A DNA stretch of 64,000 nucleotides from Acaryochloridaceae cyanobacterium OTE_25_metabat_464. Lineage in GTDB: Bacteria; Cyanobacteriota; Cyanobacteriia; Thermosynechococcales; Thermosynechococcaceae. The notes under the pieces were generated by a model that ran no database searches, was not told the origin of the DNA, and saw only the letters and a program-made list of their open reading frames with translations. Location: NCBI GenBank assembly GCA_031362245.1, contig JANLSD010000014.1, positions 23,235-87,234 of the forward strand, read 5' to 3'. This document shows, piece after piece, positions 15,845 to 55,946 of the stretch. Within the stretch, counting starts at the first letter, position 1. Each line of letters starts with the position of its first letter. A program made the translations under genes and the position numbers.

Positions 15845-16336
15845 CTAAGCTGGGGCGATCGCCGTTACTGTCCCATTAGAACCTCTATACTTGAGTGCCC
15901 CATCCTGAACGTATAGAATTCCACCGCCTGCGGGGTTTACGGATGGCGCAACGGTAGCATTTGCGATCGCAATTACACCTTTTCCTTTACCAAACTGATC
16001 GCTGGTGCGGATGCCGATGTTGCCTCCTTCTGCTAACCGTTGGATCACGGCGATCGTCTCGAAGCCTTTATTGTCGGCCTTGCGACCATTGATCTGGAAC
16101 TTGTCGGACTGGACGGCGATCTCGTATTTTCCGGCTGGGGCGATTTGATCGGTTTCGACGAATTCGATGTCGGGATTGGGGTCGTCGATTCTGATTGAGG
16201 CTGCGCCGCCGCTGGTGCCTGATTGTTTGATGTGCAGGGCGGGTTGGTTATAGTCTGGGTTTGTGGCAGATATTTCTAGAACGGAGGATGCTGAGTTGAG
16301 GGTGCCTTCGTTGGATGTGATAGATTGAGTAGCCAT
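15845..16336 (-). CDS. Orphan-operon gene 6: small Gly/beta-rich protein (163 aa) with a tail-fibre-like C-terminus
   Basis: ATG at 16336 is preceded by CAGGAGAAAACA (SD). It has no TM segment or signal peptide. The C-terminus GGGILYVQDGALKYRGSNGTVTAIAPA resembles fibre/spike-tip modules. No firm family assignment. Confidence 0.6.
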   Translation of the reverse strand: MATQSITSNEGTLNSASSVLEISATNPDYNQPALHIKQSGTSGGAASIRIDDPNPDIEFVETDQIAPAGKYEIAVQSDKFQINGRKADNKGFETIAVIQRLAEGGNIGIRTSDQFGKGKGVIAIANATVAPSVNPAGGGILYVQDGALKYRGSNGTVTAIAPA

Positions 16337-16417
16337 TGTTTTCTCCTGTAAGTTAATTTTGATTTTGTTATTGAGAGTTTCCTCCAACCCGACCCCATTT
16401 TTATTTCGGCAGTAAAA

Positions 16418-19400
16418 TTAGATCACCTTAAGTGTTGGATCACCATTGATCATCTGAAATTTGTCGGTCGAACTTGCTTTTGAAAAGTTTTTGTTAGCGG
16501 CGGCGAGCGCATCACCCACCGTTCCACCCGCCAAAAATTCATCCAGCAATGCTTTTATGGCGGGTGCCCATTGAAGGGTATTGGTAAGCCGATCCTTCCC
16601 TGACTGGGTTACGATAACGACGGTATCGCCCCTAATCTTGGTGATACATTGACTCGTTGCACAGCCAGCCAGTACCACAATTTTTGCTTTGGCAGTATTG
16701 AGGAGGTTGGTCAGTTCCGGACATGTGATATCCGGTTTCTGTCTACCCGGATCATACGGTGTCAATCCCAATGTTCTGTTCGTCCCAAGCACCGTGTGTC
16801 CGAAATAGACAACGACCGAACCTGTCGATTGCAGTGAACTCTTAAAGTCAATAGCGGCAGTGCTTGGATTGCTGATAAGATTGATTGAAAGACCGGCCAG
16901 ATCGAATCGGTTTGCTCCCATATCACTGGGGCTTTGATCCACAATCCAATCAAAAAACTGCTGCCTTGTATAGCCGACATCTAGTTTCTTAAAATAGACG
17001 TGCATGAAAATGTCCGTGGTTGGTATATTATGCAGGCTCAATTTCTTGACACCTTGTTTCGGTGTTTGTAGCTCCACCTCGACTGATTCTGTGGCTCCTT
17101 CCGATTCTTCCTCATCTGAGTTCTCAGTCAGCCAGTCAAATTCTTCTCTATCTTCTTGAGCAAAGGCTTCTACAAATGCCTCTTCGGCTGAATCGTCTCG
17201 TGCGTTCAGAGAGGCTTCGTCCTCAGAAACTTCATCGTCCTCAGCAATTTCATGTTCTAGAGCCTCTAACGATTTAGAGGCACGCCTATGCCAGGGCGAG
17301 CCAGCATACTCGCCGTCCATGTATGCTGAACCCGAGGTGTATTTGTAAATATGTACCTCCTTGTCAGAGAGATAGTCGACTCGTACGTCGACCTCAACAC
17401 CCGCAGCCACTGTCACAATCGCGACGGCGTTTTGGAAAAGTGCCAGACTTGGAGCATCAGCACTATTCTTTGACATGAAGCCAGGTTCCAGCCGATAATT
17501 GCCGATCTTGAAATATAGTTCACTCAGTTTCGCGGCGAGCCATGCTTTGCCGGATGAGCGAATGGTTGTCTGTAAGCCTGAGCAGGTGATCTGTAATAGT
17601 TCGGGCTTTGGTCTGCCACTGCCAGGGAGATTGGCAGTCATGCAATAGTTGTGGTGTACGTCGCCCGAAACCAGCACCAGTGTTTTCACTTGGCTCCCCG
17701 TCTTGCGCATAGCGTCGACTAGTCCCCATAAATCGCGCCAGCTCTTATCCCGAATCATATGCTCCAAGTCCGTAGCTCTGCGAAAGACGCGGAGCAATGA
17801 GTCTGAAGCTATGCCCAGCATCGTAGAACTTGTTGCAGCAGCAACAAGGGACGGTAGATTAGCCTGATCCCAAGCCTCAGCAGTTGTTTCGGGCTTCATC
17901 ATGATATTCATCATCTGCTTCTGCAGAAGCAGCGGCGTAGACAGTGCGATGAAAGCTACTGGTCCGGCTGGCCCCTTCTCGACGAGGATTTGACGCATCC
18001 ACGCAAGTTGAGCGTCGTCGATAGTCTGCGACATAGGACGCTTTTTCGGATCGTCGTGGTCAATGATCCTTAACTTGTCGTCGGCTGGAATCATCAATTT
18101 GCGAGTCCGGCAGTCGGGAACCAAAAACGGTGGATCGAACGGGAGTTTATAGTGCCACTCCAGACTCATGCCCGACTGGTAGCTGGCTTTTGGATCCTTT
18201 GGTGGCAATGGAGTGAAGCAAGCACGATGGATACATCTGCGTAGCGCTGGTAGCGCATCAATGCCCTGCTGCTGCGCTGCTGCGAGAGCTTTGACCCGTG
18301 GGTCATCAATTTTCCACTGCGACGGAGCCTTATTGCACCAGCCTTGGTACATCCAGTAAGCGGCCAAGCTGTCAGTCAATGTCTTGGGCCACATTCGGTA
18401 AGCATCCTTTTCATTGTGAAGCATCCGCACCCATGACAGGTCAAAGTTCCAGTCGTCAGTCGCCTCATGGTCGTCGAGCATGAGGAACGTGGGAACCTGC
18501 GCAAGTAACACGCGCACGCTGCGTGAACTAGTCCAGGAGCGCTCGTAGAGATATGCGTACTCAGCAAAGTCAGCTGCGTGTCGTCCCCCTGCAGCCGCAA
18601 GATGCCCACGATGATTCGGCTGAACTATCGCTGAATTGGAGCCATCAACAACTGTAGGAAGCAAAGGTTCAAAATCCGGGATCTGCCATAGCAGGAAGTT
18701 GTGGGAGATGTAGCGGTTGGCCATCGGATTGCGCCGTACTATAGTACGGAAACCAACTGTCCAGTGGGGCAGAAATGCCCGATAAGATCCACTCTTGAGA
18801 TTCAATTTGTCGACGGACTTGAGAAGGGTAAGCGCTTTACTATAGGTTTCCTGGTCTGATACCTTGCCTCCCAGCCCCCACGTCAGCCCGGTCATAAGTT
18901 GATGGGCCAGAACCCGACTCTCCTTATCTGTAGTACCAGTCTTTGGATATCGGTGGTAGATGCTTTTGATCTCCGGATACTTCTCATATAATTCATCGAG
19001 TTTCTTGAGGTCGTCTCTGACATTTTCAACAAACTTTGTGTCAGGGTCTTTGTATGCCTTATATCGGTGCGCGAACCTGCCAGCCCACGCCCCATCGATG
19101 AGCTTATCGCGCACGGATGAGGCCGAATCCACAGGCCCTGGAATCCGTGCGGCGAAGCGTCCCCTAATCATCATTTCGCCATGATCATCACCAATCTGAT
19201 CGGAGTAAATCTGATCCCCGCCGAAAAACAGGAAGTGCGGCCACTTCTCCTTCGGCGCGGTGCGCAGCCAGTCACCAAGACCGTGGAGCATGTCTGGCCC
19301 CCAGTCTTTGCCATTTTCCTTGTCGCCGGGGTACCATCGGCACGAACCTGTCGCGAATTTTAACTGTTTGTCGTATTTTTGACGAAGCGTGCGAAAGGTG

Positions 19401-20662
19401 AGCCACTCGTTCTGACTGAGCGACGCACTCGCAAGCTGCTTTTTCATAGATGTGGCAGCCAACGTCGTCAACTTTGGAAAGACGCCCTCGAATTCCTTTT
19501 GTGCGATAGGAATCGCACCGGATGACGGCAGCGGTACTACTTCAACTGTGTAGTCATAGAACTTTTCCTCTTGCAGATCGTCAATTTCCACTGCTGCAAA
19601 ATGCCGACCACCAACACGCACCGTCGAAGCATAACGCGATGACTCTTTACTATCGCCCGTCTTCTTGTATCGCACTCGAATCATGCTGGGCGTTACCGTC
19701 TCCATCCAAATTACCGAGCGTGCGTAGTCGGTGTAGCGAACGAAGGGACCCACTCGAATGTGCGCAGGAGTTGCACGGATCTGCACCTTGCTAAGTTGCG
19801 AGAGGAATGGTTTAGCAACCCGGATGGGTCGGCGCGTAATGTGCTCATGTTGTAAAAATCTCTCAATGCGGCTGCCAAACGCGGTATCATCCTGCACGGC
19901 AAGATCCATCTCTTGCTGGTAGTGGGGCCAGAAGTTCTTATCTGCTTTCTTATCATCACGCACCAGTGTCCAGTCAAACCAAGTACCACCGTATTCGATC
20001 TTTGGGTCGTCTGGATTCAAGAATGCTCCCGATCGGATAGCGCACACCCGGTCACGCACCTCGAACATAAAAGGCTGGGTGAGGTCAATTTTACTGAAGT
20101 AAGCATGCCCTTTTCTTTTCTCACTGAACTCACCGTGCTCACTGAGGTTGCCCTGGTGGAAGGCATACTCGCCATTGGTGACTGGCATATCCTTATCATC
20201 GACAACAAGGATATGCGGCAGATCTCGAACTTCTTCCTGCTGAGTTTTTATCGGCTTAGGCATTAACTGCTCGAATCGATCCATTGTCTCAGTATGGGAG
20301 GGAGAATAGCTTTCTTCCCACAGTGCAGCCTCTGTCTCAAAATTGCTCTCTCGATATTCATTTTCCTCTGCTTCCATAGAGACTGCTTCATCTTCTCCGG
20401 AATAGACTGAGACTGGGATGGTTTCTTGTTCATCTAATTCACCGAAAAAATCCTCAAATTCTTCCACTCTACCAGTCGCCTCCTCTTCCTCAAAAGCCTC
20501 AAGAAAAGGACTTTCTGGCTGAAACCCAGGCGCAGGAACTCTCCACTGTGCGATTCTTGCCTCGTCAGCCAGAAACTCCTCATTAAGAAATGGCAACTCT
20601 AGTTCTTGTCTAGGTTCGTGGGAATCAAAAGAGTTCTGGAGTGGATCGGATGAGGAAGACAT
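16418..20662 (-). CDS. Orphan-operon gene 5: 1414-aa multidomain protein (acidic ESPF leader, PhoD-like metallophosphatase, acidic linker, C-terminal His/Cys clan-CD/CHAT-like domain)
   Basis: SD TTAGGAGATATCC precedes the ATG. PhoD_N-like sandwich at about aa 300-375. Metallophosphatase motifs: FATGSCRWY (436), FFGGDQIYSD (479), LMLDDHEATDDW (727), LVSGDVHHNY (997). Acidic linker at aa 1130-1200. C-terminal VVVYFGHT (1284) and IVVLAGCAT (1328). Confidence 0.8.
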   Translation of the reverse strand: MSSSSDPLQNSFDSHEPRQELELPFLNEEFLADEARIAQWRVPAPGFQPESPFLEAFEEEEATGRVEEFEDFFGELDEQETIPVSVYSGEDEAVSMEAEENEYRESNFETEAALWEESYSPSHTETMDRFEQLMPKPIKTQQEEVRDLPHILVVDDKDMPVTNGEYAFHQGNLSEHGEFSEKRKGHAYFSKIDLTQPFMFEVRDRVCAIRSGAFLNPDDPKIEYGGTWFDWTLVRDDKKADKNFWPHYQQEMDLAVQDDTAFGSRIERFLQHEHITRRPIRVAKPFLSQLSKVQIRATPAHIRVGPFVRYTDYARSVIWMETVTPSMIRVRYKKTGDSKESSRYASTVRVGGRHFAAVEIDDLQEEKFYDYTVEVVPLPSSGAIPIAQKEFEGVFPKLTTLAATSMKKQLASASLSQNEWLTFRTLRQKYDKQLKFATGSCRWYPGDKENGKDWGPDMLHGLGDWLRTAPKEKWPHFLFFGGDQIYSDQIGDDHGEMMIRGRFAARIPGPVDSASSVRDKLIDGAWAGRFAHRYKAYKDPDTKFVENVRDDLKKLDELYEKYPEIKSIYHRYPKTGTTDKESRVLAHQLMTGLTWGLGGKVSDQETYSKALTLLKSVDKLNLKSGSYRAFLPHWTVGFRTIVRRNPMANRYISHNFLLWQIPDFEPLLPTVVDGSNSAIVQPNHRGHLAAAGGRHAADFAEYAYLYERSWTSSRSVRVLLAQVPTFLMLDDHEATDDWNFDLSWVRMLHNEKDAYRMWPKTLTDSLAAYWMYQGWCNKAPSQWKIDDPRVKALAAAQQQGIDALPALRRCIHRACFTPLPPKDPKASYQSGMSLEWHYKLPFDPPFLVPDCRTRKLMIPADDKLRIIDHDDPKKRPMSQTIDDAQLAWMRQILVEKGPAGPVAFIALSTPLLLQKQMMNIMMKPETTAEAWDQANLPSLVAAATSSTMLGIASDSLLRVFRRATDLEHMIRDKSWRDLWGLVDAMRKTGSQVKTLVLVSGDVHHNYCMTANLPGSGRPKPELLQITCSGLQTTIRSSGKAWLAAKLSELYFKIGNYRLEPGFMSKNSADAPSLALFQNAVAIVTVAAGVEVDVRVDYLSDKEVHIYKYTSGSAYMDGEYAGSPWHRRASKSLEALEHEIAEDDEVSEDEASLNARDDSAEEAFVEAFAQEDREEFDWLTENSDEEESEGATESVEVELQTPKQGVKKLSLHNIPTTDIFMHVYFKKLDVGYTRQQFFDWIVDQSPSDMGANRFDLAGLSINLISNPSTAAIDFKSSLQSTGSVVVYFGHTVLGTNRTLGLTPYDPGRQKPDITCPELTNLLNTAKAKIVVLAGCATSQCITKIRGDTVVIVTQSGKDRLTNTLQWAPAIKALLDEFLAGGTVGDALAAANKNFSKASSTDKFQMINGDPTLKVI

Positions 20663-20746: not shown

Positions 20747-21892
20747 TTAGGAGCGGACTTTTTCTTTCATATTGCGATCGGTTGCCAACGACCAGTAGTT
20801 GATAATCAAATTCATATCTTGAGCAACTTCATTCGGCTTTTCAACAGGTGTCGTTCCAACAGGAATTGTAGCCATATATAGAGCTGGCACTGTCGGTACT
20901 TCGTTGTAAGTTCCGAGTTCAATTTGAGTTAATAGTCTAGATAGAGGGTCAGCAAGACGGAAGAAGTAGTAAGACTTAGCGTGAACAGGCAATTTAACTT
21001 GATTAGCAATCTTTTTCAACCGCTCCTCTTCATTGGAACCCTCCGCCCGCATAGAGACGACAATTGGGGAATCAAACTCCAGGCTCAAATGGAACCAAGA
21101 CATCATTGATACAAACCAGAACTCTTCTTGGGAGAGATTGCCGTTGATGCGGCGAGTTCTCAACATGTTATTGAGACGGCGGGCTAGAAGAGCGATTGTG
21201 GCATCATCTTTGGGATTCGAGCCACTGGTATTTTTTGCGTTAGCAATTGCAACCCAAACCTCTTTTAGAAATTCCTCAAATGTGCTGACAAATTCACGAT
21301 TAGCAACATCGGGTTTTTCATAAGGATATGGCTTGTTATCACTCGTCCCATGATTGAGATCCATTCCAAACATGCGATAGTAGGCATTCCGTCGAGAAGC
21401 TCCCTGGTCTGGGCGAATGTAGCTTGATACAGAGTAGATACTAAAGGGGGCTGGATCTCGAAAGAACAACTCTTCCGTATTCCGCAGCCAATGTTGAGTA
21501 CTGGCAAGGGGAACACCCAATCGTTCGCTGTGCCGATACTCATAGATTACCCGCCTGAAGATTTCGTAAATATTTGTGTTTTCGATCAGATATGCATAAA
21601 TAAGGTGATCCCAGCAAAAGAGTCCTTTATTTTTAGGGGAAAACTTATCCTTATTTGGAACGTAAAAATCATTTTCATCAGCACCGAGAATTTCAAGAAG
21701 ATAGTCAGGCAGTTGAGGAATATCACTCCGACGGTTAGGATGCCCAAGCGGATCATTATCCGACTTTCTGAACTCCCAGCCCATTTCTAACAAGGCAGCT
21801 AATTTTGACGGATGCAAACGGAAGAGTAGTTCTGCCTTTTGATAAGGTGTATCAAGTGGAAGTGGGGTTCGAGCAGCGATGCGTCTAAACAT
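20747..21892 (-). CDS. Orphan-operon gene 4: hypothetical soluble protein (381 aa)
   Basis: ATG is preceded by ATAGGAGAAACTAACTA. No TM segment and no recognisable motif. AT-richer than its surroundings. Confidence 0.7.
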   Translation of the reverse strand: MFRRIAARTPLPLDTPYQKAELLFRLHPSKLAALLEMGWEFRKSDNDPLGHPNRRSDIPQLPDYLLEILGADENDFYVPNKDKFSPKNKGLFCWDHLIYAYLIENTNIYEIFRRVIYEYRHSERLGVPLASTQHWLRNTEELFFRDPAPFSIYSVSSYIRPDQGASRRNAYYRMFGMDLNHGTSDNKPYPYEKPDVANREFVSTFEEFLKEVWVAIANAKNTSGSNPKDDATIALLARRLNNMLRTRRINGNLSQEEFWFVSMMSWFHLSLEFDSPIVVSMRAEGSNEEERLKKIANQVKLPVHAKSYYFFRLADPLSRLLTQIELGTYNEVPTVPALYMATIPVGTTPVEKPNEVAQDMNLIINYWSLATDRNMKEKVRS

Positions 21893-21960: not shown

Positions 21961-22326
21961 TCATTTCAGAACCTGGTTTTTGGGTTTACAATCTTCACCG
22001 AGCGGAAGTTCGTCTAGCTGCGGCGAACTTGCCAACGCTTCTTTATCTACCTTCGGTAAACACCATTCCTTTTCAGGGCCAACTAGCGCTTTTTTGATTT
22101 TGAGGAATTCATCTCTGGCATATTCTGGAGTTCCCAGTATCGGGGAAGTTTTTTGGGTTTCTACTGGATTTTCCATGGTTTTCTGCTCTTTTGTTTGTTG
22201 AAATTTCAAAGTGCCTGCAATAAGGTCACTATTTTTGTCAGTTAAACTTTTTTGATCTTCTGTTTTTTTATCTGGCTGGGATGCTCCTGGCGGAGTATTT
22301 TCTGGTCTGCCTTTTTCCTCTGTCAT
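21961..22326 (-). CDS. Orphan-operon gene 3: small Lys/Glu/Pro-rich, probably disordered protein (121 aa)
   Basis: ATG is preceded by TTAGGAGAGGAAAACCC. Low-complexity charged sequence with no known domain. Confidence 0.5.
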   Translation of the reverse strand: MTEEKGRPENTPPGASQPDKKTEDQKSLTDKNSDLIAGTLKFQQTKEQKTMENPVETQKTSPILGTPEYARDEFLKIKKALVGPEKEWCLPKVDKEALASSPQLDELPLGEDCKPKNQVLK

Positions 22327-22356
22327 GGGTTTTCCTCTCCTAATGACGATCGATCC

Positions 22357-23652
22357 TCAAGCAACCTGCAAAGTCTCCCCCAGCCTCAGCATCCAGTCTT
22401 TTTGCTGTTGCAAAACCTCCAACGCCCGATCGGATCGAGTCGCCGCCAGATATCCCGTCAGAGCCAACAGCCGGAGCGGCTCCGTCCAGACCCAATGATG
22501 CGACGTATACAGCGCCGCGCCACCCTGTTGCTCCAGTTTTGCCAACGCTTCCGGGCTAACCCGTCTGGGGTCAATCAGCATCGCCAGGGAATCGCCTCGA
22601 AAGGCTCGCATCGGAGCCGCCAGCGTCAACTCAGCGATTCTCGGCAGCAATGGCAAAGATTGTTGCAACAACTCCCGCACCTCTGGTCTGGCCCGCGCCA
22701 AATCAAGTTCCTGCCGCCATGTCCGCTCCAATTCATCCCAAGGCCCCCTGCCAAAAAACAGACGACACATTTCGATTCCCAGCAACAGGCGGAGATAGCC
22801 GATCGGGTGAGGATCACCTGGAAGATAGCGGAAGGCGATCGCCTCACCACCAGCAATCACCGTATGCAGCCCCGAAACCGCCGCATAGCCCGTATGCGCA
22901 AACGCAAACGTATCAGCCGCAATTTCACTCGACCAGCTTGCCCACATTCCAGCCACCTCTGGCGACACCACCGATAGCTCCCTGTCCAGAAGCGCCGCCA
23001 GTTCGTCACTCCAACCAATAAACTGAGCAACCTGGTGCCCCGCTTCATGAATCAAAGCCGTCGGACGGTAGAGATTGTGTCGCGTAATCTTGATCGCCGC
23101 CGTCAGGCTTTCCGTTTTGCCATCCCACAACCGCAGTCCGGCTTTGAGAATGGAGGCTCCCAACCCCTTATCGATATAAGTCAACACGGGCGGCGTGGTT
23201 TTACCCAACTGATCTAGCAACTGCGACATACTGCGCCGTGCCAACACATCACAGGCACGCAAAAGTGCTGCAAGTCTTGGACTGGTTCGAGTATTGAGGG
23301 CATCAGCATAGAAATCTAGCAACGTTTCCGTCTGTAGATAATGCTGCCGAAATCCCAACAACTGGCGTTGAACCTGATTGATCTCGTCGCGCGTTCTCGC
23401 CACATTCAACTGACCTTGTAGCGTCGCCGCCTGTCGCTGGAGCCGCTCCACCGCCGCCGATAGGTTCTGGCGCAACACAATCCCCGTATACTTTTCCAGC
23501 CCCTCCCAAACACTCGCCGAAGCCAGATCTTCTAAATCCCCCAGCCTCGACGCGGCCATCGCCCAGTGCGACACCTGACGGGCAAGATGTAAACGCAGCG
23601 CATCGGTATCTTCAACCACGATTGAACCCTGGAACAACTTGGACGTTCGCAT
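22357..23652 (-). CDS. Orphan-operon gene 2: putative gluzincin-type zinc metalloprotease (HEAGH)
   Basis: Start MRTSKLF at 23652 is preceded by AAGGGAGG. HEAGH is encoded at 23035-23049 (aa 202-206), followed about 36 aa later by SSEIAADTFAF, a candidate third ligand Glu. The N-terminal half looks helical. Confidence 0.65.
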   Translation of the reverse strand: MRTSKLFQGSIVVEDTDALRLHLARQVSHWAMAASRLGDLEDLASASVWEGLEKYTGIVLRQNLSAAVERLQRQAATLQGQLNVARTRDEINQVQRQLLGFRQHYLQTETLLDFYADALNTRTSPRLAALLRACDVLARRSMSQLLDQLGKTTPPVLTYIDKGLGASILKAGLRLWDGKTESLTAAIKITRHNLYRPTALIHEAGHQVAQFIGWSDELAALLDRELSVVSPEVAGMWASWSSEIAADTFAFAHTGYAAVSGLHTVIAGGEAIAFRYLPGDPHPIGYLRLLLGIEMCRLFFGRGPWDELERTWRQELDLARARPEVRELLQQSLPLLPRIAELTLAAPMRAFRGDSLAMLIDPRRVSPEALAKLEQQGGAALYTSHHWVWTEPLRLLALTGYLAATRSDRALEVLQQQKDWMLRLGETLQVA

Positions 23653-26017
23653 CGGGCATACCTCCCTTAGCCTGCATCTCCTGAATATTGACCGACTCTC
23701 CGCGCAAGATTTTCCGCAGATGTGCAAATCCAGGTGGATTAGTAAAGACAATTTTCAACGTCACCCCATCGGCAGGGTTTTCTGTAGCAGTAATGAAATC
23801 TGGAGATTTCTGTTGTAAGTAAGTCGTCAGATTCTTGCCCAGCCATTCAATCAGATGTTTAATAAACCATTCCCGAACCGCCTGAGGCAGACGACTCAAA
23901 ATTCGTCCTCGCGATCCTTTCGGCGGCACTTTACCGTGGATCGTTTTCAGGTGGCTATGGTGCTTCCCAGTCATGATTTTTTTCAACCGTGGCTCATAGA
24001 CCGCACTTAAATGGGGCATAACCGTGCCGATCGATGCCTTTTGGCGAAGCTTCACAGCGATCGCCTGAGCCACAGCCTCACTAAGAAATAGGTGGATTTT
24101 AATTTGGTCGTGCGGGAAATCAAATCGGATATTGAGTTGTCGGATGCGTCTGGGCTTTGGCGCACCCCCAGCCACTGGCACTACCTGCGGACGCGCTTCG
24201 GGAATCTCCAAATAGTAGAGCCGTTGACCTACCGCAGTTGTAGGCTGATGGTCGAGGTATTTCTCTGGCACCTCCCGTCCCAATCCTGGCTGACCGAACA
24301 CCATTCCAGCCGCCTCTGGGGTGAGGGGATGCAGATGCGTCCAAGCAGTTATGCTACCCAGTCCAGGCACATGCCGCTCGGATTTGCAAATTTGACTCAG
24401 CAGCGTTCCAGGGATTGCTTCGTAAAGATGCACCCGTGCCTTGATCGCTCGACCTGGCGACAGCCCCAGTCGATCTTGCAGAAATTCCGCCAGCGGCACA
24501 TCACAGAACGTTTTCACCACCCGCGCCATGTGGGGAGTAATGATCGTTTCATAAACCCTAGTACATTTTTTGTAACGTTTATTACCCCGTAACGGCTGCA
24601 TCACCCAGGTGGACTTAATGCCAGTCGTCTCTCGTAGTTCAGGTCTGGCTTCATATATCCGTTCTGGCAGAACAGGTGGTAGATTGACAGAAGCAGACTG
24701 TTCAAAGGCTTCTAGGGCATATCCTTCCAACAGTTCTTGGTTATCTAGAATGTACTCTGGCAGTGCCGCAATCTGACGCACCGTATCTTCAAGCGTGGCG
24801 GCAACCGCTGAACGGGCAGCATGGACTTCATTCTCAGGTGTGGCTTCCAAATGAATTAAGCGCAAACCTACGTCCACCATTGCCTGAGATAGTGCTGGAG
24901 CATATTGAGGACCAATGAACTTTCGGATCAGTTTGGCTAAGAACTCGGCAAGCCAATTAACGATCTTGACTCGACCCACCATGCTTATTCCCAGCTTTAA
25001 AGCAGGCAGAATGGCAGGTATAAAGTTTTGCACTAGCGGGGTCGGATCTTCTCCTTCTCTCAATTCGCCAAGCTGCGTTACAAACTGGGCACGTGCTCTA
25101 TCTAACTCACTGAGTGGATCGTGGGTGATCGGCTGCTGCGATTCTTTAACATATTCGGCGATCGCCAATTCCTGTTCTACAGCCTCTTTGCTAAACAAAA
25201 GATTCGCAATTTGCCCATCAAACTCTCGTTGAATTCCAGAAACATCCGGCGTGGCATCTTCTTCGGTAGTGGCTTCTTCTTCAAATTCTTGATTCAGCAG
25301 CCGTTTAGCAAATTGATCGGCCACGGGGCGAAGTGCCGCAGGCAATTTGTTGATACCCTGTTTCACAACTCTCTGCACCAGTGGCATAATCAGTTGTTTG
25401 AGCTTTTGCAGAATGGGTTTGAGTGCAAAGTTGCCAGCTAGATTAATCCCCTGCTTCACTAAACCACCGGCTTTCTTGAGCAAACTACCAAAAAAGTTCT
25501 CAAAGCTGGGAGAGAGACTATTTTGAGGTTCATAGCGATCAATAAAGGATTCAATTTCTGCCTCATCGAGGCTACTTGGGCTACGTTGTCCAAATTCATT
25601 TGCCATCGTGTCCAGAAACATCTCGGCTTCTGTGACCAAAGGTGCAAAGTGCTGCTCTAGCATCCGTGTCGCCTGCATTTTCTGAGCAAGCGGATCTCCA
25701 TATTCACTCTCAAATCGATCTTGATAAAGTTCGTCGGCCTCACTGACCAACTCAAATACCGCCTCATCAAACTCCTCATCATAGAGTTCGCTGAGAAACT
25801 CCATCATCTCCTCAGCTTCTGGATCGATCGATCCCGCTTCGTTTTCCAATTCATAGACGGAACGGAACGGACTTTCGCGTTGAGCAAGATTTGAGTAGAA
25901 TGCCTGTCCTTCTGATGCTTCCGATGCCTCATCAAAAAACTTCATCGTTATATTAGGAAAGGGGGACTCAAAATCTTGGGATTGAGAGCCATAGTTCTCT
26001 TCTGTAAAAGATGACAT
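23612..26017 (-). CDS. Orphan-operon gene 1: 801-aa protein with acidic double-ESPF leader followed by a cationic amphipathic segment
   Basis: SD AAGAGGTAACA precedes the ATG. ESPF at aa 17-20 and 48-51. Glu/Asp-rich up to about aa 165, then FFGSLLKKAGGLVKQGIN...RVVKQGINKLP. The remainder shows no recognisable domain. Confidence 0.75.
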   Translation of the reverse strand: MSSFTEENYGSQSQDFESPFPNITMKFFDEASEASEGQAFYSNLAQRESPFRSVYELENEAGSIDPEAEEMMEFLSELYDEEFDEAVFELVSEADELYQDRFESEYGDPLAQKMQATRMLEQHFAPLVTEAEMFLDTMANEFGQRSPSSLDEAEIESFIDRYEPQNSLSPSFENFFGSLLKKAGGLVKQGINLAGNFALKPILQKLKQLIMPLVQRVVKQGINKLPAALRPVADQFAKRLLNQEFEEEATTEEDATPDVSGIQREFDGQIANLLFSKEAVEQELAIAEYVKESQQPITHDPLSELDRARAQFVTQLGELREGEDPTPLVQNFIPAILPALKLGISMVGRVKIVNWLAEFLAKLIRKFIGPQYAPALSQAMVDVGLRLIHLEATPENEVHAARSAVAATLEDTVRQIAALPEYILDNQELLEGYALEAFEQSASVNLPPVLPERIYEARPELRETTGIKSTWVMQPLRGNKRYKKCTRVYETIITPHMARVVKTFCDVPLAEFLQDRLGLSPGRAIKARVHLYEAIPGTLLSQICKSERHVPGLGSITAWTHLHPLTPEAAGMVFGQPGLGREVPEKYLDHQPTTAVGQRLYYLEIPEARPQVVPVAGGAPKPRRIRQLNIRFDFPHDQIKIHLFLSEAVAQAIAVKLRQKASIGTVMPHLSAVYEPRLKKIMTGKHHSHLKTIHGKVPPKGSRGRILSRLPQAVREWFIKHLIEWLGKNLTTYLQQKSPDFITATENPADGVTLKIVFTNPPGFAHLRKILRGESVNIQEMQAKGGMPDANVQVVPGFNRG

Positions 26018-27641: not shown

Positions 27642-29654
27642 ATGAACAGTTCCCGCAATATTGCGATCGTAGGCCCTTACTCTAGCGGCAAAACCACACT
27701 CTTAGAAAATTTGCTTTATGTAACGGACAGTATCTCCCGTAGAGGTTCAGTGCGGACAGGAAACACCGTGGGGGACACCTCCGCAGAAGCCCGCGCCCAC
27801 CAAATGAGTACAGAAATCACGGCTGCCAGTCTTACCCACGGCAGCCGTGATTTTACATTTTTAGACTGCCCTGGCTCCATCGAACTCGCCCAGGAAACCT
27901 TCAATGCCCTGGTTGGCGTTGATGCGGCAGTGGTGGTGTGCGAGCCGGATCCGCAAAAAGTGCTGGGCCTTTCACTGCTGTTTCAGGTCTTGGACGATTG
28001 GCAAATCCCCCATCTGGTGTTCCTCAATAAAATGGATCGCGCCATTGCGCCATTTTCTGAGGTATTAGCAGCCCTCAAACAAGTCTCCAGCCGTCCGATG
28101 GTGCCGCAGCAGTACCCCATTGGCCAAAACGAGACCTTGCAAGGGTTTATTGATTTAATTACAGAACAAGCCTTCCAATACCACCCCGATGCCCCCGCAG
28201 ACCCCATTCCCCTACCGGAAGCGCTCAAGGAGCAAGAGCACGCCGCACGGGCAGAAATGCTGGAAACCTTAGCGGAGTTTGACGATCATCTGTTAGAAGA
28301 ACTGATTGAAGAAGTCGAACCACCCCAGACGGAAGTGCTCCAAGATCTCAAAGATGAACTGAGTGCAGACTTGATTGTCCCTGTCTTGTTTGGGGTTGCC
28401 GATCAAGGGTTTGGGATTCGTCCGTTACTGGAAATCTTGGCGAAAGAAGCGCCGGAAGCCCAAGAGACAGAGAAGCTGCGGGGGTTAGGGAAAGAGAATA
28501 ATGCGATCGCCCAAGTTCTCAAAACCTATATTTCGGCCCAAGGCGGTAAGCTTTCGCTGGTGCGGGTGTGGCAGGGGACGCTGTCCGATGGGATGTCGTT
28601 GAACAAGGTGCGGGTGAGTGGGATCTATCGTCTGATGGGGCAGCAGCAAACCAGTATTGCCCAAGCCAGTGCAGGTGAAATTGTGGCCTTGGGACGACTG
28701 GAAGGCATTCAAACAGGAGATACGCTCTCTACAAACGGTTTTGACACTGCTGAACTGCGGCGGGGAACGGCGTTAGAGCCTGTGTTTGCACAGGCGGTGC
28801 GGACTCAAAATCGTAAAGATGAGGTGAAGCTGACGACGGCCCTCCATAAGCTAAATGAAGAAGATCCATCTTTAATTTGGAAGCACCAGGAAGAAACCCA
28901 TGAGATTGTGCTGTGGGGTCAGGGTGAAATTCATTTGATGATTGGCAAAGAGCGGTTGGAGCGCAAGTATAACTTACCTGTGGAACTCACACCGCCTCAT
29001 ATTGCTTACTGTGAAACCATTCGCAAGACAACTTCTAGTCATGGTCGCTATAAACACCAAACGGGTGGGCATGGGCAGTTTGGAGATGTTTATTTAGACA
29101 TTGAGCCGCAGCCTCGCGGCGAAGGCTTTCAGTTCAAGGAAAAAATTGTGGGTGGCGCGGTGCCGAAGCAGTATATTCCTGGCGTTGAGATGGGGGTACG
29201 CGAATTTTTGGTGCAGGGGATGTATGGGTATCCAGTAGTGGATTTGTCAGTGACGCTGACGAATGGCTCCTACCACACGGTTGATAGTTCGGAGCAGGCG
29301 TTTAAGCAGGCGGCTCGGTTGGCGATGCAGTCTGGTTTACCCAATTGTGAGCCTGTTTTGCTAGAACCTATCGAACGCATTACTCTGGCAACGCCTGTAG
29401 AATTTACCGCTAATATCTTGCGGCTGGTGCGGAACCGTCGCGGTCAGGTATTAGGCTATGATGCAAAGCCTAATTGGACGGGATGGGATGAGGTGACGGC
29501 CTATTTACCGATGGCAGAAATGCAGAGTCTGATTACAGAACTGCGATCGCTGACCCAAGGCGTAGGTTTCTTCCACTGGGAGGACGATCATTTGCAGGAA
29601 GTACCAGACAAGATTGCAGAGCAGGTTTTGGCGATCGCAAAGTCGGCTGCATAA
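27642..29654 (+). CDS. Elongation factor G paralogue (EF-G-like GTPase)
   Basis: 670 aa. G1 is GPYSSGKTT, G3 is LDCPGS, G4 is NKMD. EF-G domains III-V are recognisable (HGRYKHQTGGHGQFGDV, GGAVPKQYIPGVE). Confidence 0.85.
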   Translation: MNSSRNIAIVGPYSSGKTTLLENLLYVTDSISRRGSVRTGNTVGDTSAEARAHQMSTEITAASLTHGSRDFTFLDCPGSIELAQETFNALVGVDAAVVVCEPDPQKVLGLSLLFQVLDDWQIPHLVFLNKMDRAIAPFSEVLAALKQVSSRPMVPQQYPIGQNETLQGFIDLITEQAFQYHPDAPADPIPLPEALKEQEHAARAEMLETLAEFDDHLLEELIEEVEPPQTEVLQDLKDELSADLIVPVLFGVADQGFGIRPLLEILAKEAPEAQETEKLRGLGKENNAIAQVLKTYISAQGGKLSLVRVWQGTLSDGMSLNKVRVSGIYRLMGQQQTSIAQASAGEIVALGRLEGIQTGDTLSTNGFDTAELRRGTALEPVFAQAVRTQNRKDEVKLTTALHKLNEEDPSLIWKHQEETHEIVLWGQGEIHLMIGKERLERKYNLPVELTPPHIAYCETIRKTTSSHGRYKHQTGGHGQFGDVYLDIEPQPRGEGFQFKEKIVGGAVPKQYIPGVEMGVREFLVQGMYGYPVVDLSVTLTNGSYHTVDSSEQAFKQAARLAMQSGLPNCEPVLLEPIERITLATPVEFTANILRLVRNRRGQVLGYDAKPNWTGWDEVTAYLPMAEMQSLITELRSLTQGVGFFHWEDDHLQEVPDKIAEQVLAIAKSAA

Positions 29655-51827: not shown

Positions 51828-52607
51828 CTAAGCCTTTGCTAAAAAATAAACTTCCCAAGAACTGAATCCAGGCATGGCATTTGTAATCCACTCATTGCAT
51901 TGAAGCAACTCAAAATTGTGTTTCTCTAAAAGCAGCTTTACTTCTGGTTGAAATAAATATCGCATTCGATGTAGTTCATGAAAATGATTAGATGTTAAAT
52001 CATTCTTATCAGTGATGATTATTTCATAGTTGACATCAACTAAGTTCTCATTAGGTAGCAGGACTGGCTCTGCGATGCGAAGCATACTGACTTGTTTGTT
52101 TTCTAATCGCTTAATTCTGGTGGTGGGGCGATCGCTCAAAACACCAGGCCCGTACCAACAATCAAACAGAAAAATGCCCCCAGGCTTCAAATGCGCTTTT
52201 GCAGTTGCAAATGCCGCACTGAGGTCTTCATTGGATGTTTGATAACTCATTACATGAAAAAGTGAAATTACAGTATCATATTTTTTCTCGATCTGAATTG
52301 TTCGCAAGTCACCTTGCTTAAATTTTATATTTGAATCAATATATTGAGAGTTTTTTCGAAGCTGTTCATTTGCTATTGCTATCATTTCAGGACTAAGATC
52401 TATTCCATTAACCTGATATCCTTTCTCTGACAAAATTATTGCATGCTTCCCTGTTCCACATCCCAATTCTAAAATTGACTCCAATTCAGGCTGAACCTGA
52501 CTTAAAAGTGAGAGGATATAGTTTACCTCGCCAACATAGTCTTTGTCTTGATAAATTAAGTCATAATATTGTGCATAATTCTCTCGAAAATTCATACAGC
52601 TTTGCAC
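51828..52607 (-). CDS. Class I SAM-dependent methyltransferase (AT-rich cassette)
   Basis: ILELGCGTGKH motif I and LKPGGIFLFD. Confidence 0.75.
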   Translation of the reverse strand: MQSCMNFRENYAQYYDLIYQDKDYVGEVNYILSLLSQVQPELESILELGCGTGKHAIILSEKGYQVNGIDLSPEMIAIANEQLRKNSQYIDSNIKFKQGDLRTIQIEKKYDTVISLFHVMSYQTSNEDLSAAFATAKAHLKPGGIFLFDCWYGPGVLSDRPTTRIKRLENKQVSMLRIAEPVLLPNENLVDVNYEIIITDKNDLTSNHFHELHRMRYLFQPEVKLLLEKHNFELLQCNEWITNAMPGFSSWEVYFLAKA

Positions 52608-52697
52608 CTTGAAACTAAACAGACTTATAGAGAGATATTCTTTTTAGATCTAGAGAGAATGGAAGCTTAATATCAACAAAATCTCTGTAGATTATTT

Positions 52698-53819
52698 TTA
52701 TAGATTTGAAAAAATTTTCTTAAGTGATTCGAAAACTTGATTGATTTGCTGCTCAGTCAGGGTTACTCCACTGGGTAAGTAAAGACCTCTTTGAGAAATT
52801 TGTTCAGCAATGGGACAAGTAACATTGTTAAAAAGACCCATATTTAAAAACACAGGCTGTAAATGAATAGGCCAGAAAAAAGGGCGTGACCCTATATTCT
52901 GTTCCCGCAAAAGATTCATTACCCCTTTTGCATCAATTAGAGTGTTTTCTTTTAGAACAATACTATAAACCCAGTATATATTTTGGGCATAAGAAGTTTC
53001 AGCAAGGGGAATCTGTAGGCAAGATAAATCCTTGAGTAAGGCCGTGTAGCACTGACCAATTTGTCTCTTTCTTGCGACAAATTCATCAATCCGTTCTAGT
53101 TGAGCAACACCCAATGCAGCTTGGAGATTGCTCATACGATAATTCCAGCCCAGTGCATGATGAATGAAGCGCCGTTCGTTTTGCATACAAAGGTTGCGGA
53201 GAGATCGACAGCGTTCTGCTAACACCTCGTCGTCAGTTAGAATCATTCCACCTTCGCCAGTTGTTATATTTTTATTTGCATAAAAACTAAACAGACTTAG
53301 TTCACCAAAGCTTCCGCAAGGACGATTCTTATAAGTTTGACCATGGACTTCAGCGGCATCCTCAATAATCATTAATCCATATTTACTTGCCAACGCCAAA
53401 ATTGGATCCATATCCACAGGCAAACCATAAATATGAACCACCATAATGGCCTTTGTTTGAGACGTGATTTTTGATTCTACCTGAGTGATATCCATATTCC
53501 ACGTATCAGGACAACAATCCACAACGACTGGTGTTGCACCACATCTGACAATTGCTGTTGCACAGGAAATAATGGTGAAGGTTGGCAAAATAACCTCGTC
53601 ACCAACACCCAAACCTAAGCAAGAAACTGCTATGTCTAATGCCGCAGTGCCACTGCTGACCGCAATGCCAAAACGTCTGCCAACATAGGCAGCAAACTGT
53701 TGTTCAAGGCGGTCTACAAACGGGCCTTCGGATGATATCCAGCCGCTATCGATACATTCATTTAAATACTTCTTTTCATTCCCATCGAGAAGGGGTTCGC
53801 TAACAAGAATTGGTTTCAT
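52698..53819 (-). CDS. DegT/DnrJ/EryC1/StrS-family sugar aminotransferase
   Basis: 373 aa with typical N-terminus (EKKYL.ECIDSGWISSEGPFV..LE..FA), PLP-Lys region FSFYANKNITTGEGG. Confidence 0.88.
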   Translation of the reverse strand: MKPILVSEPLLDGNEKKYLNECIDSGWISSEGPFVDRLEQQFAAYVGRRFGIAVSSGTAALDIAVSCLGLGVGDEVILPTFTIISCATAIVRCGATPVVVDCCPDTWNMDITQVESKITSQTKAIMVVHIYGLPVDMDPILALASKYGLMIIEDAAEVHGQTYKNRPCGSFGELSLFSFYANKNITTGEGGMILTDDEVLAERCRSLRNLCMQNERRFIHHALGWNYRMSNLQAALGVAQLERIDEFVARKRQIGQCYTALLKDLSCLQIPLAETSYAQNIYWVYSIVLKENTLIDAKGVMNLLREQNIGSRPFFWPIHLQPVFLNMGLFNNVTCPIAEQISQRGLYLPSGVTLTEQQINQVFESLKKIFSNL

Positions 53820-54259
53820 CGGTGTAACTGCTCAGTGCTTTCGGGGGGTAAACCTTCAAAACAAGTTTTGTCTTGTTCTCCTAGGTAAGGGCCTTGCTTT
53901 ACCTCGATCATCTCCACCTCTTCTAAGATTTCAAATCCATGTCCCCCCATGATGAGTATAATAACGTCTCCAGATTCTAAAATACGACTTTCTAAGTATT
54001 TTTGTTTTTCCGTATAAAAATCAACTCGTAATCGACCTTTTTTGATGATCAAGACTTCTTGAGTTAACTGCACCTCCCGAGAAATATGATTGTGGATGTG
54101 GGGTGGGATCATTTTTCCCGCCGAATAATGCATGTATGCAAGTTGTTGGCTGAGTTCGGAGGGAGTAAAGAAATGTATACCTTTCTCCTTAAACTTGTTA
54201 GAAATAATAATCGAAAATAGAGAGTTCTGGTACTTAATTTCTTCTATCATTGTAGACAT
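53816..54259 (-). CDS. Cupin-fold protein, possible sugar keto-isomerase (WxcM/FdtA-like)
   Basis: 147 aa with PPHIHNH...GHGFE cupin metal motifs. It overlaps the aminotransferase start by 4 nt. Confidence 0.5.
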   Translation of the reverse strand: MSTMIEEIKYQNSLFSIIISNKFKEKGIHFFTPSELSQQLAYMHYSAGKMIPPHIHNHISREVQLTQEVLIIKKGRLRVDFYTEKQKYLESRILESGDVIILIMGGHGFEILEEVEMIEVKQGPYLGEQDKTCFEGLPPESTEQLHR

Positions 54260-54463
54260 ATTCTAATATCTTTATAAATCAAACTGCTGTATCTTTACAA
54301 TGTCTGCATCTTTTGAGAGTAGTATTTTTTTGCAGATTATTAATGAGAAAATAACAACACAAATGCTTGTGGCTTAAGGAATATCAGATACTCCTATCAT
54401 ATGTATTAGGGTGAGAGAAATTGCCTAAATCTCCTGTCAAGCGAGGGCCAAAAAACGTGCCGA

Positions 54464-55036
54464 TTAAGAGGTTTGCATTCCATAATTGTTGACGGCTATC
54501 CAAAGACCAGAGATCCCTAAAATACTACCTAAAGTACTCCAGGCTTGATATGAATACCCTTCTTGATACGCCCCATAAATTTGTCTGGGGATAGATAGCA
54601 AAAAACATAGAATGATCAGTAGCATTGCAACAATGACGGCACTAGGTATATCCATTACGGCTGAGAAAGCTGTTACATTGACTACCCTTTGCCTTGAAAT
54701 AAGGGAAAAGGCGGCAAGGCAAACTCCACCTGTCGTAAAAGACAGAATAAGTAATGAGTAAAATGTATCTAATATCGCATATTGTGCAACTTTTTTGTCG
54801 TTCTTACTATCAACTGAGGCAAGAATATTAGTGAGACTGCTTGCTAATCCGAGGTCAGCAATACTAGCCCAGCTTAAAAAGCTACTGAGAATCAACCAGA
54901 TTGCAAAACGTTCGGTACCCAAATACTGAACAGTTAGTGGAATTGATATTAAGCCAGCACCTGAAGTAATGCCTCTAGAAACTAGAGTTGCACCTTCTGT
55001 AAGCATTGCTCGAAAAGTTCTATTTTTTGAGGACAT
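54464..55036 (-). pseudogene. Polysaccharide flippase (Wzx/MOP-type) N-terminal fragment, apparently truncated
   Basis: The 190 aa cover only about 5 TM helices (SGAGLISIPLTVQYLGTERFAIW...). Full-length family members are usually over 400 aa. A non-coding gap of about 200 nt follows. Confidence 0.45.
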
Positions 55037-55184
55037 CTAGGACATTGAGCGCAGGTATCGCCTTTCTGAGTCTTTTCTGATACAGCTTAGTCTTTTTTAC
55101 AACACATTTGCCAAATTTTAGCTATCAAAACTCAACTGCTCTAAAAATGATATTGAAGCGATCTATGTTTGTGAGGCTATTTTG

Positions 55185-55946
55185 TCAAAAAAGATCTAGG
55201 TGAGCTACTTGAGCAAAGTCAAAATTGCCCATCTCCCAATCCGCTGGGACAAGCTGCTCTATTTTTAAATTGCTGCGCGAAAGATCCGCGCCCAGAATGC
55301 GGGTGTGAAACAGTTTTGCGCCAGAGAAGTTGGTGCGGTGCAAATTGGCCCAGGAGCAATTGGCTGCGGACAAATCCGCCTCAATGAGGGTTGCACCCAG
55401 CAGATAGGCTCGGCATAAGTTTGCTTCTCGCAAGTTGGCATGGCTTAAATCGGCTCCATAAAGCTGAGCACTGATCAGAACTGCGCGGTGGAGACTGCTA
55501 TGGCGCAAGATGGCCTGACAGAGATTTGCCTCTGTTAAGTTGGCGTTGCTGAGGTTGCTACGGCTGATCTGTGCCCCATCTAAACTTGCTTGCTTAAGGT
55601 TTGCATTGCGTAAATTGGTGCCAATGAGATTGGCGCAATGTAAATCCGTTCGCAATAGATTAGTGTCTTGTAAATTAGCCCCAATGAAGTTGGTGTGGGA
55701 GCAGTCAGCCCTCTGGAGGAAACACTTGGAGAGATCGGCGAGGGCAAAATTTGCTCCTACACAATTCGATTTCTCCAGATTTGCGCCTACTAAATTTGCA
55801 TTGCTGAAGTTGGCTTCGCTTAGGTTTATCAGGCCAAGCTCCAGATAGCTAAGGTCTGGAATGATGTGGGGATGCTGCGATCGCCAATGATTCCAGCCTT
55901 CAACGCCGTCTGTTTTGAGTATTGCCAGATGGTCTAAATTCGCCAT
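55185..55946 (-). CDS. Pentapeptide-repeat protein
   Basis: 253 aa, almost entirely A(D/N)LxG/A(N)L pentads. Confidence 0.85.
   Translation of the reverse strand: MANLDHLAILKTDGVEGWNHWRSQHPHIIPDLSYLELGLINLSEANFSNANLVGANLEKSNCVGANFALADLSKCFLQRADCSHTNFIGANLQDTNLLRTDLHCANLIGTNLRNANLKQASLDGAQISRSNLSNANLTEANLCQAILRHSSLHRAVLISAQLYGADLSHANLREANLCRAYLLGATLIEADLSAANCSWANLHRTNFSGAKLFHTRILGADLSRSNLKIEQLVPADWEMGNFDFAQVAHLDLF

Follow-up and report, generated by a model that had tools for sequence, protein, structure and literature searches.

What is an enzyme with the hallmarks of a PhoD-type phosphodiesterase doing on the same polypeptide chain as a caspase-like protease? The question is raised by a gene in a 64,000-nucleotide stretch (hereafter the window) of contig JANLSD010000014.1 from Acaryochloridaceae cyanobacterium OTE_25_metabat_464. 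The gene lies at 16418–20662 on the reverse strand and encodes a protein of 1414 amino acids. An earlier note, made from the sequence alone, had read this protein as a PhoD-like metallophosphatase with large insertions, bracketed by two acidic regions and ending in a His/Cys domain that resembles the caspase/CHAT proteases of clan CD, and knew of no described fusion of this kind. Three questions follow. First, are the two domains what they seem to be? Second, do they form one dedicated unit? Third, on what would such a protein act? We find the 1414-residue protein to be a polymorphic effector, built as a mosaic of a leader, an acidic linker, a swappable payload, a second acidic linker and a toxin-type caspase-like module. 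With a probability of roughly 0.6, it is a multi-enzyme effector directed at the cell envelope, which occupies the variable "E slot" of a widespread five-gene cassette, A-B-C-D-E.

A mosaic protein in a variable slot

The open reading frame (ORF) starts with ATG and runs through 1414 codons with zero internal stops. The protein has 93 relatives in the databases, with the core being 49–72% identical across phyla; a chance ORF is thereby excluded, and the gene is real. A string check on the translation found every string quoted in the earlier note at its position. IRVGPFVRYTDYARSVIWMETV starts at residue 302, the PhoD_N-like segment spanning residues 302–375, and is followed by FYDYTVEV at 368, FATGSCRWY at 436, GGDQIYSD at 481, LDDHEATDDW at 729 and SGDVHHNY at 999. 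In the C-terminal module, VVVYFGHT (with H1289) starts at 1283 and IVVLAGCAT (with C1334) at 1328. Both acidic regions are also present, residues 1–146 having a net charge of −31 and residues 1126–1205 the composition given in Table 1. A similar acidic linker precedes the caspase-like module in two other proteins, P0075 and P0103.

At least 18 proteins that are otherwise unrelated start with a stretch 75–88% identical to the first 73 residues of the protein. The domains found behind this same leader are OmpA, SLT, VanY, M15, amidase, 3D, trypsin-like, beta-lactamase-like and M35. From cyanobacteria to methanogens, E-slot proteins can be told by the pattern LESPFLxxELF - W - ESPFxxAFE, and a hidden Markov model (HMM) of the leader, with the consensus SELESPFLDEELFADEAEQEWEARLSELELESPFLQAFEE, matched 37 of 9,261 ORFs. 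All but one of these matches are the genes that come first after D or extra effector genes in the same loci, the single exception being a protein A. Within the window, the sole match of the leader HMM is the 1414-residue ORF (residues 20–62, E = 6e-9).

A comparison with the DNA of another locus, L001, places the joints of the mosaic (Table 1): similarity extends from B into the leader, disappears over the whole payload, and resumes at the caspase-like module and in the gene downstream. The module, at 52–65% identity, recurs on M35 proteins with the same leader, and is also found on an OmpA-like protein, on short basic proteins of ~280 residues, and at Rhs tips, where it stands right after the Rhs "DPxG" motif or the YD repeats. 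The contexts of the module family are toxin-like only. Members of the core family, for their part, stand alone or have an S8, a trypsin-like or a VanY domain as fusion partner. Core and module thus recombine independently, so that the fusion is modular and not a co-evolved phosphodiesterase–caspase unit. Of the earlier interpretation, both domain calls stood up to testing, whereas the implicit idea of a dedicated fusion of phosphodiesterase and caspase-like protease has to be given up in favor of two independently swappable modules of a polymorphic effector.

The same distribution bears on a different explanation, namely that the chain is one integrated signalling or defence enzyme, for example with second-messenger turnover coupled to a CHAT-type protease and with obligatory self-processing. 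SAVED-CHAT is among the best structural matches of the module, and the acidic linkers could be the cleavage sites of such an enzyme. We nevertheless regard this as very unlikely, given that the core is met alone or with S8, trypsin or VanY, and the module alone or with M35, OmpA or Rhs, and that the protein has neither a sensor domain nor a PADLOC match.

Two loci with the module deserve mention in their own right. In L089 (657–2601), a YD/Rhs-type protein ends in the caspase-like module; the next gene, convergent and truncated, encodes a bona fide Pfam CHAT domain. In L004 (3908–11887), a metagenomic locus, a D homologue stands ahead of a PLDc_2 protein with the leader, a DUF7800 gene in fragments, a separate module ORF of 195 residues and an M23 peptidase; the fragmentation looks like the result of frameshifts or assembly errors. 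The 195-residue "stand-alone" module is therefore probably a fragment of the frameshifted DUF7800 gene, and the fragmentation accounts for at least this one stand-alone match. A metagenome scan for the module returned a single locus.

The first gene after D usually encodes 500–1700 residues and starts with two SPF/SPY motifs ~27 residues apart. The DUF7800/PhoD core follows D in only ~8 of 80 loci. Among the Pfam domains of 29 slot proteins, drawn from diverse phyla, cell-wall enzymes predominate, the slot domains being Amidase_2, VanY, SLT, M23, M15, 3D, DUF2272, PG_binding_1, Amidase_6 and trypsin-like; one slot protein has a C-terminal domain like that of VgrG3 of the type VI secretion system (T6SS), and the PLDc_2 protein of L004 is a further leader-bearing case. 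The slot copies of Methanosarcina and Methanothrix carry SLT, VanY, M15 and PG-binding domains. To our knowledge these archaea have no murein, and their peptidoglycan hydrolases are therefore hardly for their own use. Two or three leader-bearing genes stand in tandem behind D in L036 (11228–18746), L061 and L032; in a Methanothrix example the two proteins, of 1166 and 812 residues, both have their SPF motifs at residues 21 and 48.

The PhoD-type core and the caspase-like module

Residues ~147–1125 emerged from the homology search as a conserved unit of ~1000 residues, which stands alone in Nitrospira, Acidobacteria, Polyangiaceae and others at 49–72% identity. The Pfam family DUF7800 (PF25077) matches residues 301–375 with 46.8 bits, above its gathering cutoff of 27 (E = 3.3e-12), and most core homologues have a precomputed match to the PhoD family PF09423, but one that is labelled faint. 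In an alignment of 32 core members, down to 34% identity, GSC, GDQIY, DDHE, EH and GDxH are all invariant, which includes C441, D483/Y486, D730–H732 and D1001/H1003, in the same order as in the PhoD family. A tblastn search against plasmids matched residues 698–1047 to genes annotated as "alkaline phosphatase D family protein" (E = 4e-16). The best such match, the 564-residue Rubrobacter indicoceani protein WP_119071096, passes both Pfam families (DUF7800, 110.9 bits; PhoD, 45.4 bits) and aligns collinearly with the core in blastp (E = 3e-23), pairing GSCR with GSCR, GDQIY with GDQIY, DDHE with DDHE, DLDH with DLEH, and SGDVHHGY with SGDVHHNY. The invariant signature residues and this collinear alignment together bear out the call of a PhoD-like metallophosphatase. 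An NCBIfam scan gave nothing for the 1414-residue protein and nothing useful for the six cassette proteins.

The large insert that the earlier note had suspected in the catalytic core is also there: GDQIY and DDHE are separated by 248 residues, as against 64 in the Rubrobacter DUF7800-PhoD protein. The spacing is 246–253 residues in the 1414-residue protein and its close relatives, and the insert has invariant motifs of its own, GAWAGRFAHR and LLWxIP. From these sequences we read the ~180-residue insert as an old, conserved and family-wide trait of this branch of PhoD proteins. The AlphaFold2 (AF2) model of residues 147–1125 has a mean predicted local distance difference test score (pLDDT) of 79 and a predicted template-modelling score (pTM) of 0.86, with lower confidence in the insert, and every signature motif comes directly after a β-strand. 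In a Foldseek search with this model, the sole full-length matches are purple acid phytases and phosphatases, with a probability of 0.97–1.0 and a template-modelling score (TM) on the target of 0.41–0.45, but with E ~3e-3.

It might be thought that the protein is simply a Pho-regulon alkaline phosphatase D for scavenging phosphate, with extra domains. The PhoD-type signature residues and the resemblance to annotated alkaline phosphatase D family proteins would fit. Tat-dependent export is a feature of the canonical PhoD of B. subtilis and not of the whole PhoD family. The 1414-residue protein has neither a Tat nor a Sec signal, its N-terminus being acidic and free of a twin-arginine motif or a hydrophobic signal. 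Moreover, the gene sits in a polymorphic effector slot, its leader is common to peptidoglycan hydrolases and proteases, and its product is fused to a toxin-type protease module. A scavenging phosphatase is hence extremely improbable.

For the C-terminal module, AF2 was run on residues 1194–1414 with an alignment of 10 sequences, and the resulting model has a pLDDT of 82 and a pTM of 0.83. The top 40 Foldseek matches of this model in the PDB are all of clan CD, with E values from 2e-5 and TM (query) of 0.46–0.56. They include the MALT1 paracaspase (E = 2e-5), SAVED-CHAT (TM 0.56), caspases 3, 4, 6, 7, 9 and 11, and metacaspases, with DdvA, Csx29 and legumain lower down. In the model, the third strand ends with the His, after which come a short hairpin and a helix, while the Cys comes directly after the fourth strand (in domain numbering, H96 is in or at the end of strand E90–99, and C141 is right after E135–140); the order of secondary-structure elements is that of caspases.

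The conservation pattern of the module points to the same two residues. An exhaustive HMMER search found 82 representatives of the module among 1.84 billion proteins. Across 46 relatives, down to 22% identity, H1289 is the sole invariant residue (46/46) and C1334 is kept in 45, and G1288, Y1286, S1354 and T1360 are near-invariant. The family has its own motifs, YxGH[ST], LAGC[AS][ST] and SG[KR]D..T. The caspase/CHAT-like call is thus upheld by the predicted fold and by conservation, as are the order and the 45-residue spacing of H1289 and C1334. Below threshold, Pfam matches of the relatives go to CHAT in 9 of 46 (best E = 8e-4) and to Peptidase_C25 in 4 of 46 (E = 0.01). HHalign against an approximate caspase-3 sequence pairs C1334 with Cys163, without significance (Prob 0.35, E = 0.17). 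Searches of the PDB by sequence and by profile with the whole protein, the core and the module gave chance-level matches only. An isochorismatase reading of the module was also considered, on a weak motif match centred on a second cysteine, C1339, and comparable in weakness to the CHAT and C25 matches; it was rejected since C1339 is kept in only 27 of the 46 relatives and the fold search gives clan CD only.

The cassette and the probable destination of its enzymes

The genes A, B, C, D, the 1414-residue ORF and a downstream gene, w180, are co-directional with short gaps between them (Table 1). In a scan of reference genomes, D had relatives in at least 141 species, 36–76% identical across bacteria and archaea; 80 loci were kept for HMM mapping, in addition to loci fetched earlier. 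The bacteria with D include Cyanobacteria, Bacteroidota, Actinomycetota (Streptomyces, Nocardia, Mycobacterium), Proteobacteria, Myxococcota, Acidobacteriota, Planctomycetota and Paenibacillus, and the archaea include Methanosarcina and Methanothrix. The order A-B-(C)-D is kept almost everywhere in the ~80 loci, which come from many bacterial phyla and from both archaeal genera. Core homologues are preceded by the same A-B-small-D order in Lysobacter, in a metagenome-assembled genome (MAG) of Polyangiaceae and on other contigs. Clustering of the ~80 loci gave no further conserved neighbour, the sole other recurrent cluster being a generic hybrid two-component sensor. A phage-lysis or plasmid origin of the cassette was considered and rejected, since D has no match in a collection of 50,697 phage records or in one of 72,556 plasmid records.

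Proteins A to D have no Pfam, PHROG, PADLOC or PDB match. Remote searches and PDB sequence and profile searches with A, B and D stayed at chance level, with no remote matches for A; PADLOC-DB had no match for E, B, C, D and w180 and only a chance-level Cmr5 match for A (E = 0.045); and the PHROG scan of the six cassette proteins gave nothing useful. Hydrophobic segments are mostly missing from A, B and D, which are predicted to be soluble. Protein A has 460 relatives, without any Pfam domain or fusion, and is a "hypothetical protein" in 120 of 120 among those listed. Its identity is 45–50% between cyanobacteria, Methanosarcina and a Hodarchaeota MAG; the full-length homologues P0282, P0247 and P0300, from a "Candidatus Hodarchaeota" (Asgard) MAG and Methanosarcina, are 45–48% identical. 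Such archaeal homologues imply an inter-domain horizontal transfer of the cassette. The A proteins begin with SPF motifs related to the leader. In the protein A of the window, residues 1–110 have a net charge of −27 and contain two SPF motifs, and residues 175–245 are lysine-rich and amphipathic with a net charge of +10 (...LLKKAGGLVKQGINLAG...LQKLKQLIMPLVQRVVKQGINKL...), a layout reminiscent of a membrane-active cationic segment kept masked by an anionic pro-piece.

Protein B, present in 78 of 83 loci, has the motifs HExGHQ, SEIxxD and DPHP invariant across phyla; the zincin-like signature makes it a predicted zincin-type metallopeptidase. Its listed TTG start (23751) is probably wrong. A start at the GTG of 23619 would give an overlap of 8 nucleotides with the end of A, its TGA stop included (GTGGTTGA), and an ATG at 23652 is an alternative; an identical 8-nucleotide overlap in L005 suggests that the translation of A and B is coupled. 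Protein C is 58% identical to its counterpart in L001, and a small ORF of variable sequence and length occupies the same position in most loci. The w180 product, with its likely start at M18 and the end ...GGILYVQDGALKYRGSNGTVTAIAPA, has a weak match to PHROG 4013 (E = 4e-7) and is 84% identical to the product of the gene after the M35-plus-module effector in L001; there, the following gene encodes a protein with a pectate-lyase fold. Promoter and terminator scans were not above the shuffled background.

How could these parts work together? The cassette probably deploys cell-envelope-degrading enzymes against other microbes. The leader would serve A, B and D, its conserved soluble partners, as a recognition peptide or pro-peptide; B, given its zincin-like HExxH motif, would be the likely processing peptidase, and the acidic linkers would hold apart enzymes that act independently. 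The place of action of these enzymes would be outside the producing cell, with the envelope of competing bacteria as their target. Teichoic acid is hydrolysed by B. subtilis PhoD, an enzyme that uses Fe and Ca. By analogy with it, the core would most plausibly hydrolyse phosphodiester-linked polymers or lipids of the envelope. The caspase-like module could be a second, proteolytic toxin, placed C-terminal-most as at Rhs tips, or else a releasing peptidase. Candidate routes of export are lysis-dependent release, a contractile injection system (CIS) encoded elsewhere, or a membrane-active role for A.

The same set of genes might instead be turned inwards, as a module for autolysis, programmed cell death or abortive infection whose effectors are silenced in the cytoplasm by the acidic leader and linkers and by A–D, and are set free against the envelope and proteome of the producer itself upon phage attack or stress. 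That the accessory proteins are soluble, and that a signal peptide, a secretion gene and an immunity gene are missing, would be expected of such a module, which would also suit the filamentous or aggregating lineages in which the cassette is common (cyanobacteria, actinomycetes, myxobacteria, Methanosarcina, Methanothrix). Conflict systems of this kind typically use caspase-like and trypsin-like effectors (PMC7159879). Yet the producer itself offers no substrate for the SLT, VanY, M15 and PG-binding domains in the slot of Methanosarcina and Methanothrix, PADLOC matched none of the six proteins, and no conserved NTPase or sensor gene lies nearby. Suicide of the producer is thus an unlikely purpose of the cassette.

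Alternatively, the leader-bearing proteins may be the cargo of a CIS encoded elsewhere, of the extracellular (eCIS/PVC-like) or the cytoplasmic type, with A–D loading or maturing them. CIS cargo typically has disordered N-terminal packaging signals. The PVC-type pathway extends over a comparable range of lineages, among them Euryarchaeota, cyanobacteria and actinobacteria (PMC3482391), and signal-less archaeal peptidoglycan hydrolases tend to co-occur with a phage-sheath gene in the genome (PMC12352652). In the ~80 loci, however, no conserved sheath, tube, baseplate or AAA+ cluster was found within 10 kb, and none adjoins the cassette of the window, which is flanked by purL-purF-HAD on one side and an EF-G-like gene on the other. 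The cassette is also present in mycobacteria. We know of no CIS in mycobacteria, and hold that cargo of this kind is quite unlikely.

Several results weigh against an envelope-directed effector, as preferred here, or against the domain calls on which it draws. The substrates of the effectors are inferred by analogy. Neither a secretion signal, a membrane component, a contractile-injection gene nor a secretion ATPase was found in or next to the cassette, and there is no clear immunity gene beside the effector and no match to a known immunity family. As for w180, it was considered as an immunity protein and rejected, since it is absent beside the module in L004 and L088. For the module, no clan-CD Pfam family (C14, CHAT, C25, C11, C13, C80) reaches its threshold, and it is by its model, computed from 10 sequences, a clan-CD-fold His/Cys domain of a small new family. 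For the core, Pfam PhoD (PF09423) stays below its gathering threshold (23.8 bits versus 27; E = 2.8e-5) and covers only residues 696–742, and neither B. subtilis PhoD nor any other PhoD entry is among the Foldseek matches. This absence, together with a profile search of PDB sequences that returned nothing, is why the core is filed as divergent; judged by its sequence, it is a divergent member of the DUF7800-PhoD group with its signature metal-ligand residues intact, and not a canonical PhoD.

A broader proposal is that A-B-C-D and the bipartite SPF leader make up an unrecognised, self-contained system that matures and deploys polymorphic envelope-degrading effectors and has spread horizontally through most bacterial phyla and into archaea (Methanosarcina, Methanothrix and the Hodarchaeota MAG). 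We give this somewhat less than an even chance. If true, this would be a weapon class new to conflicts between microbes, with an archaeal version aimed at bacteria, and the 1414-residue protein would be among the most elaborate payloads of the A–D/leader system.

As to the surroundings of the cassette in the window, the EF-G-like gene (27642–29654, forward strand) encodes a GTPase of 670 residues with all five EF-G domains and is separated from A by a gap of 1.6 kb with short ORFs only. Antisense ORFs of 90–240 residues lie on the forward strand over the cassette (19522–20266, 22252–23021 and 24092–25441); they are of low complexity, rich in Arg, Pro and Ser, and look like shadow ORFs rather than genes, and equivalent antisense "families" in the locus clustering are artefacts. 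Further away, 52001–56000 has a G+C content of 0.39–0.42, compared with ~0.50 elsewhere in the window, and could have been acquired horizontally.

Table 1. Features of the effector gene and its cassette, in coordinates of the window
Feature	Residues	Position	Strand	Basis
Effector ORF, E-slot gene of the cassette	1–1414	16418..20662	−	Intact ORF and relatives
Bipartite SPF leader (ELPFLNEEF ... W ... ESPFLEAFEEE)	1–73	20444..20662	−	Shared N-termini, leader HMM
First acidic linker	74–146	20225..20443	−	29% D+E, net charge −16; not conserved in relatives
Family-specific N-terminal β-sandwich and helices	147–295	19778..20224	−	Kept in all core homologues; β part with pLDDT >90
DUF7800 (FN3/PhoD_N-like β-sandwich)	296–380	19523..19777	−	Pfam PF25077; aligns to Rubrobacter DUF7800
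Metallophosphoesterase, first part: GSC (C441), GDQIY (D483, Y486)	381–504	19151..19522	−	Invariant in 32 relatives
Mostly helical insert of ~180 residues in the catalytic domain	505–690	18593..19150	−	Motif spacing versus canonical protein
Metallophosphoesterase, second part: DDHE 730–733, DLEH 965–968, GDVHH 1000–1004	691–1125	17288..18592	−	Blast, Pfam and fold matches
Second acidic linker	1126–1205	17048..17287	−	36% D+E, net charge −23
Caspase-like module (clan-CD fold), H1289 and C1334	1206–1414	16421..17047	−	AF2, Foldseek, conservation
Protein A, 801 residues: N-terminal SPF motifs, acidic region, Lys-rich amphipathic segment		23612..26017	−	460 relatives
Protein B, ~420 residues: predicted zincin-type metallopeptidase, probable GTG start 23619		22357..23751	−	Invariant motifs
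Protein C, 121 residues: small, poorly conserved, between B and D		21961..22326	−	Positional conservation
Protein D, 381 residues: signature gene directly upstream of the effector slot		20747..21892	−	Relatives in at least 141 species
w180, ~163–180 residues: downstream of the effector		15845..16387	−	Co-conservation with the module in L001 only
DNA versus L001: B, C, D and the first ~59 effector codons		23409-20484		85% identity
DNA versus L001: payload (PhoD-like core here, M35 peptidase in L001)		20483-17090		No similarity
DNA versus L001: caspase-like module		17089-16428		70% identity
DNA versus L001: downstream gene w180		16355-15787		81% identity

Comparison with known systems

The closest parallel in design is offered by the polymorphic toxin systems, in which a constant N-terminal region is recombined with variable enzymatic toxin domains (PMC3482391). 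Caspase-like domains ("Tox-Caspase") have been described there as C-terminal toxins or releasing peptidases by Zhang, de Souza, Anantharaman, Iyer and Aravind in 2012 (PMC3482391), and the likeness extends to the module itself, which also sits at Rhs tips, and to payloads that are peptidoglycan hydrolases and peptidases. The differences lie at the other end of the protein and in its neighbours. The trafficking domains listed for polymorphic toxins are the signal peptide, TPS, PAAR, WXG/LXG, PVC-metallopeptidase, PrsW, MuF and SpvB (PMC3482391), and the SPF leader is not among them; nor did Pfam find any trafficking domain (Sec, TPS, PAAR, WXG-LXG, PVC-metallopeptidase, PrsW or MuF) on the 1414-residue protein. 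Furthermore, the signature neighbours A–D are unannotated, no adjacent immunity gene is evident here, and several enzymatic modules are joined by acidic linkers.

Among the papers in the searchable library, none was found to mention DUF7800, the leader or the cassette. Together with a survey of trafficking modules that does not hold the leader (PMC3482391), this makes the cassette a more interesting lead than the fusion. With the 1414-residue protein, the repertoire of polymorphic toxins would gain a payload of the PhoD phosphodiesterase type and a small, new family with a caspase fold, and four strongly conserved, unannotated proteins ahead of a hypervariable gene point to a mode of handling or delivery of antibacterial enzymes that has not been described. 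This is relevant to two wider questions, the means by which archaea fight bacteria and the route by which lytic enzymes without a signal leave cells, and the leader might find use as a portable tag.

Taken domain by domain, the core shares with the PhoD/DUF7800 family, as represented by Rubrobacter indicoceani WP_119071096, the FN3-like domain followed by a metallophosphoesterase and the motifs GSC, GDQIY, DDHE, DLxH and SGDVHH. It differs in the additional N-terminal β-sandwich and in the ~180-residue helical insert between motifs II and III, and in being part of a 1414-residue protein that lacks a Tat signal, has its gene in an effector slot and combines the core with other enzymes. The module resembles the members of clan CD (MALT1, SAVED-CHAT, Csx29, caspases, metacaspases and the C25 gingipains) in predicted fold, strand order and the placement of His and Cys, whereas it is compact (~210 residues), has motifs of its own and belongs to a very small family with toxin-like contexts only. 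With T6SS and bacteriocin-type effectors, such as the C-terminal muramidase of VgrG3, the E-slot proteins have in common the VgrG3-like, M23, VanY, SLT and amidase domains and the lack of Sec signals. Unlike those effectors, they are encoded without T6SS, type VII secretion system or CIS genes adjacent to the cassette, and the cassette is found in Gram-positive bacteria, Gram-negative bacteria and archaea alike.

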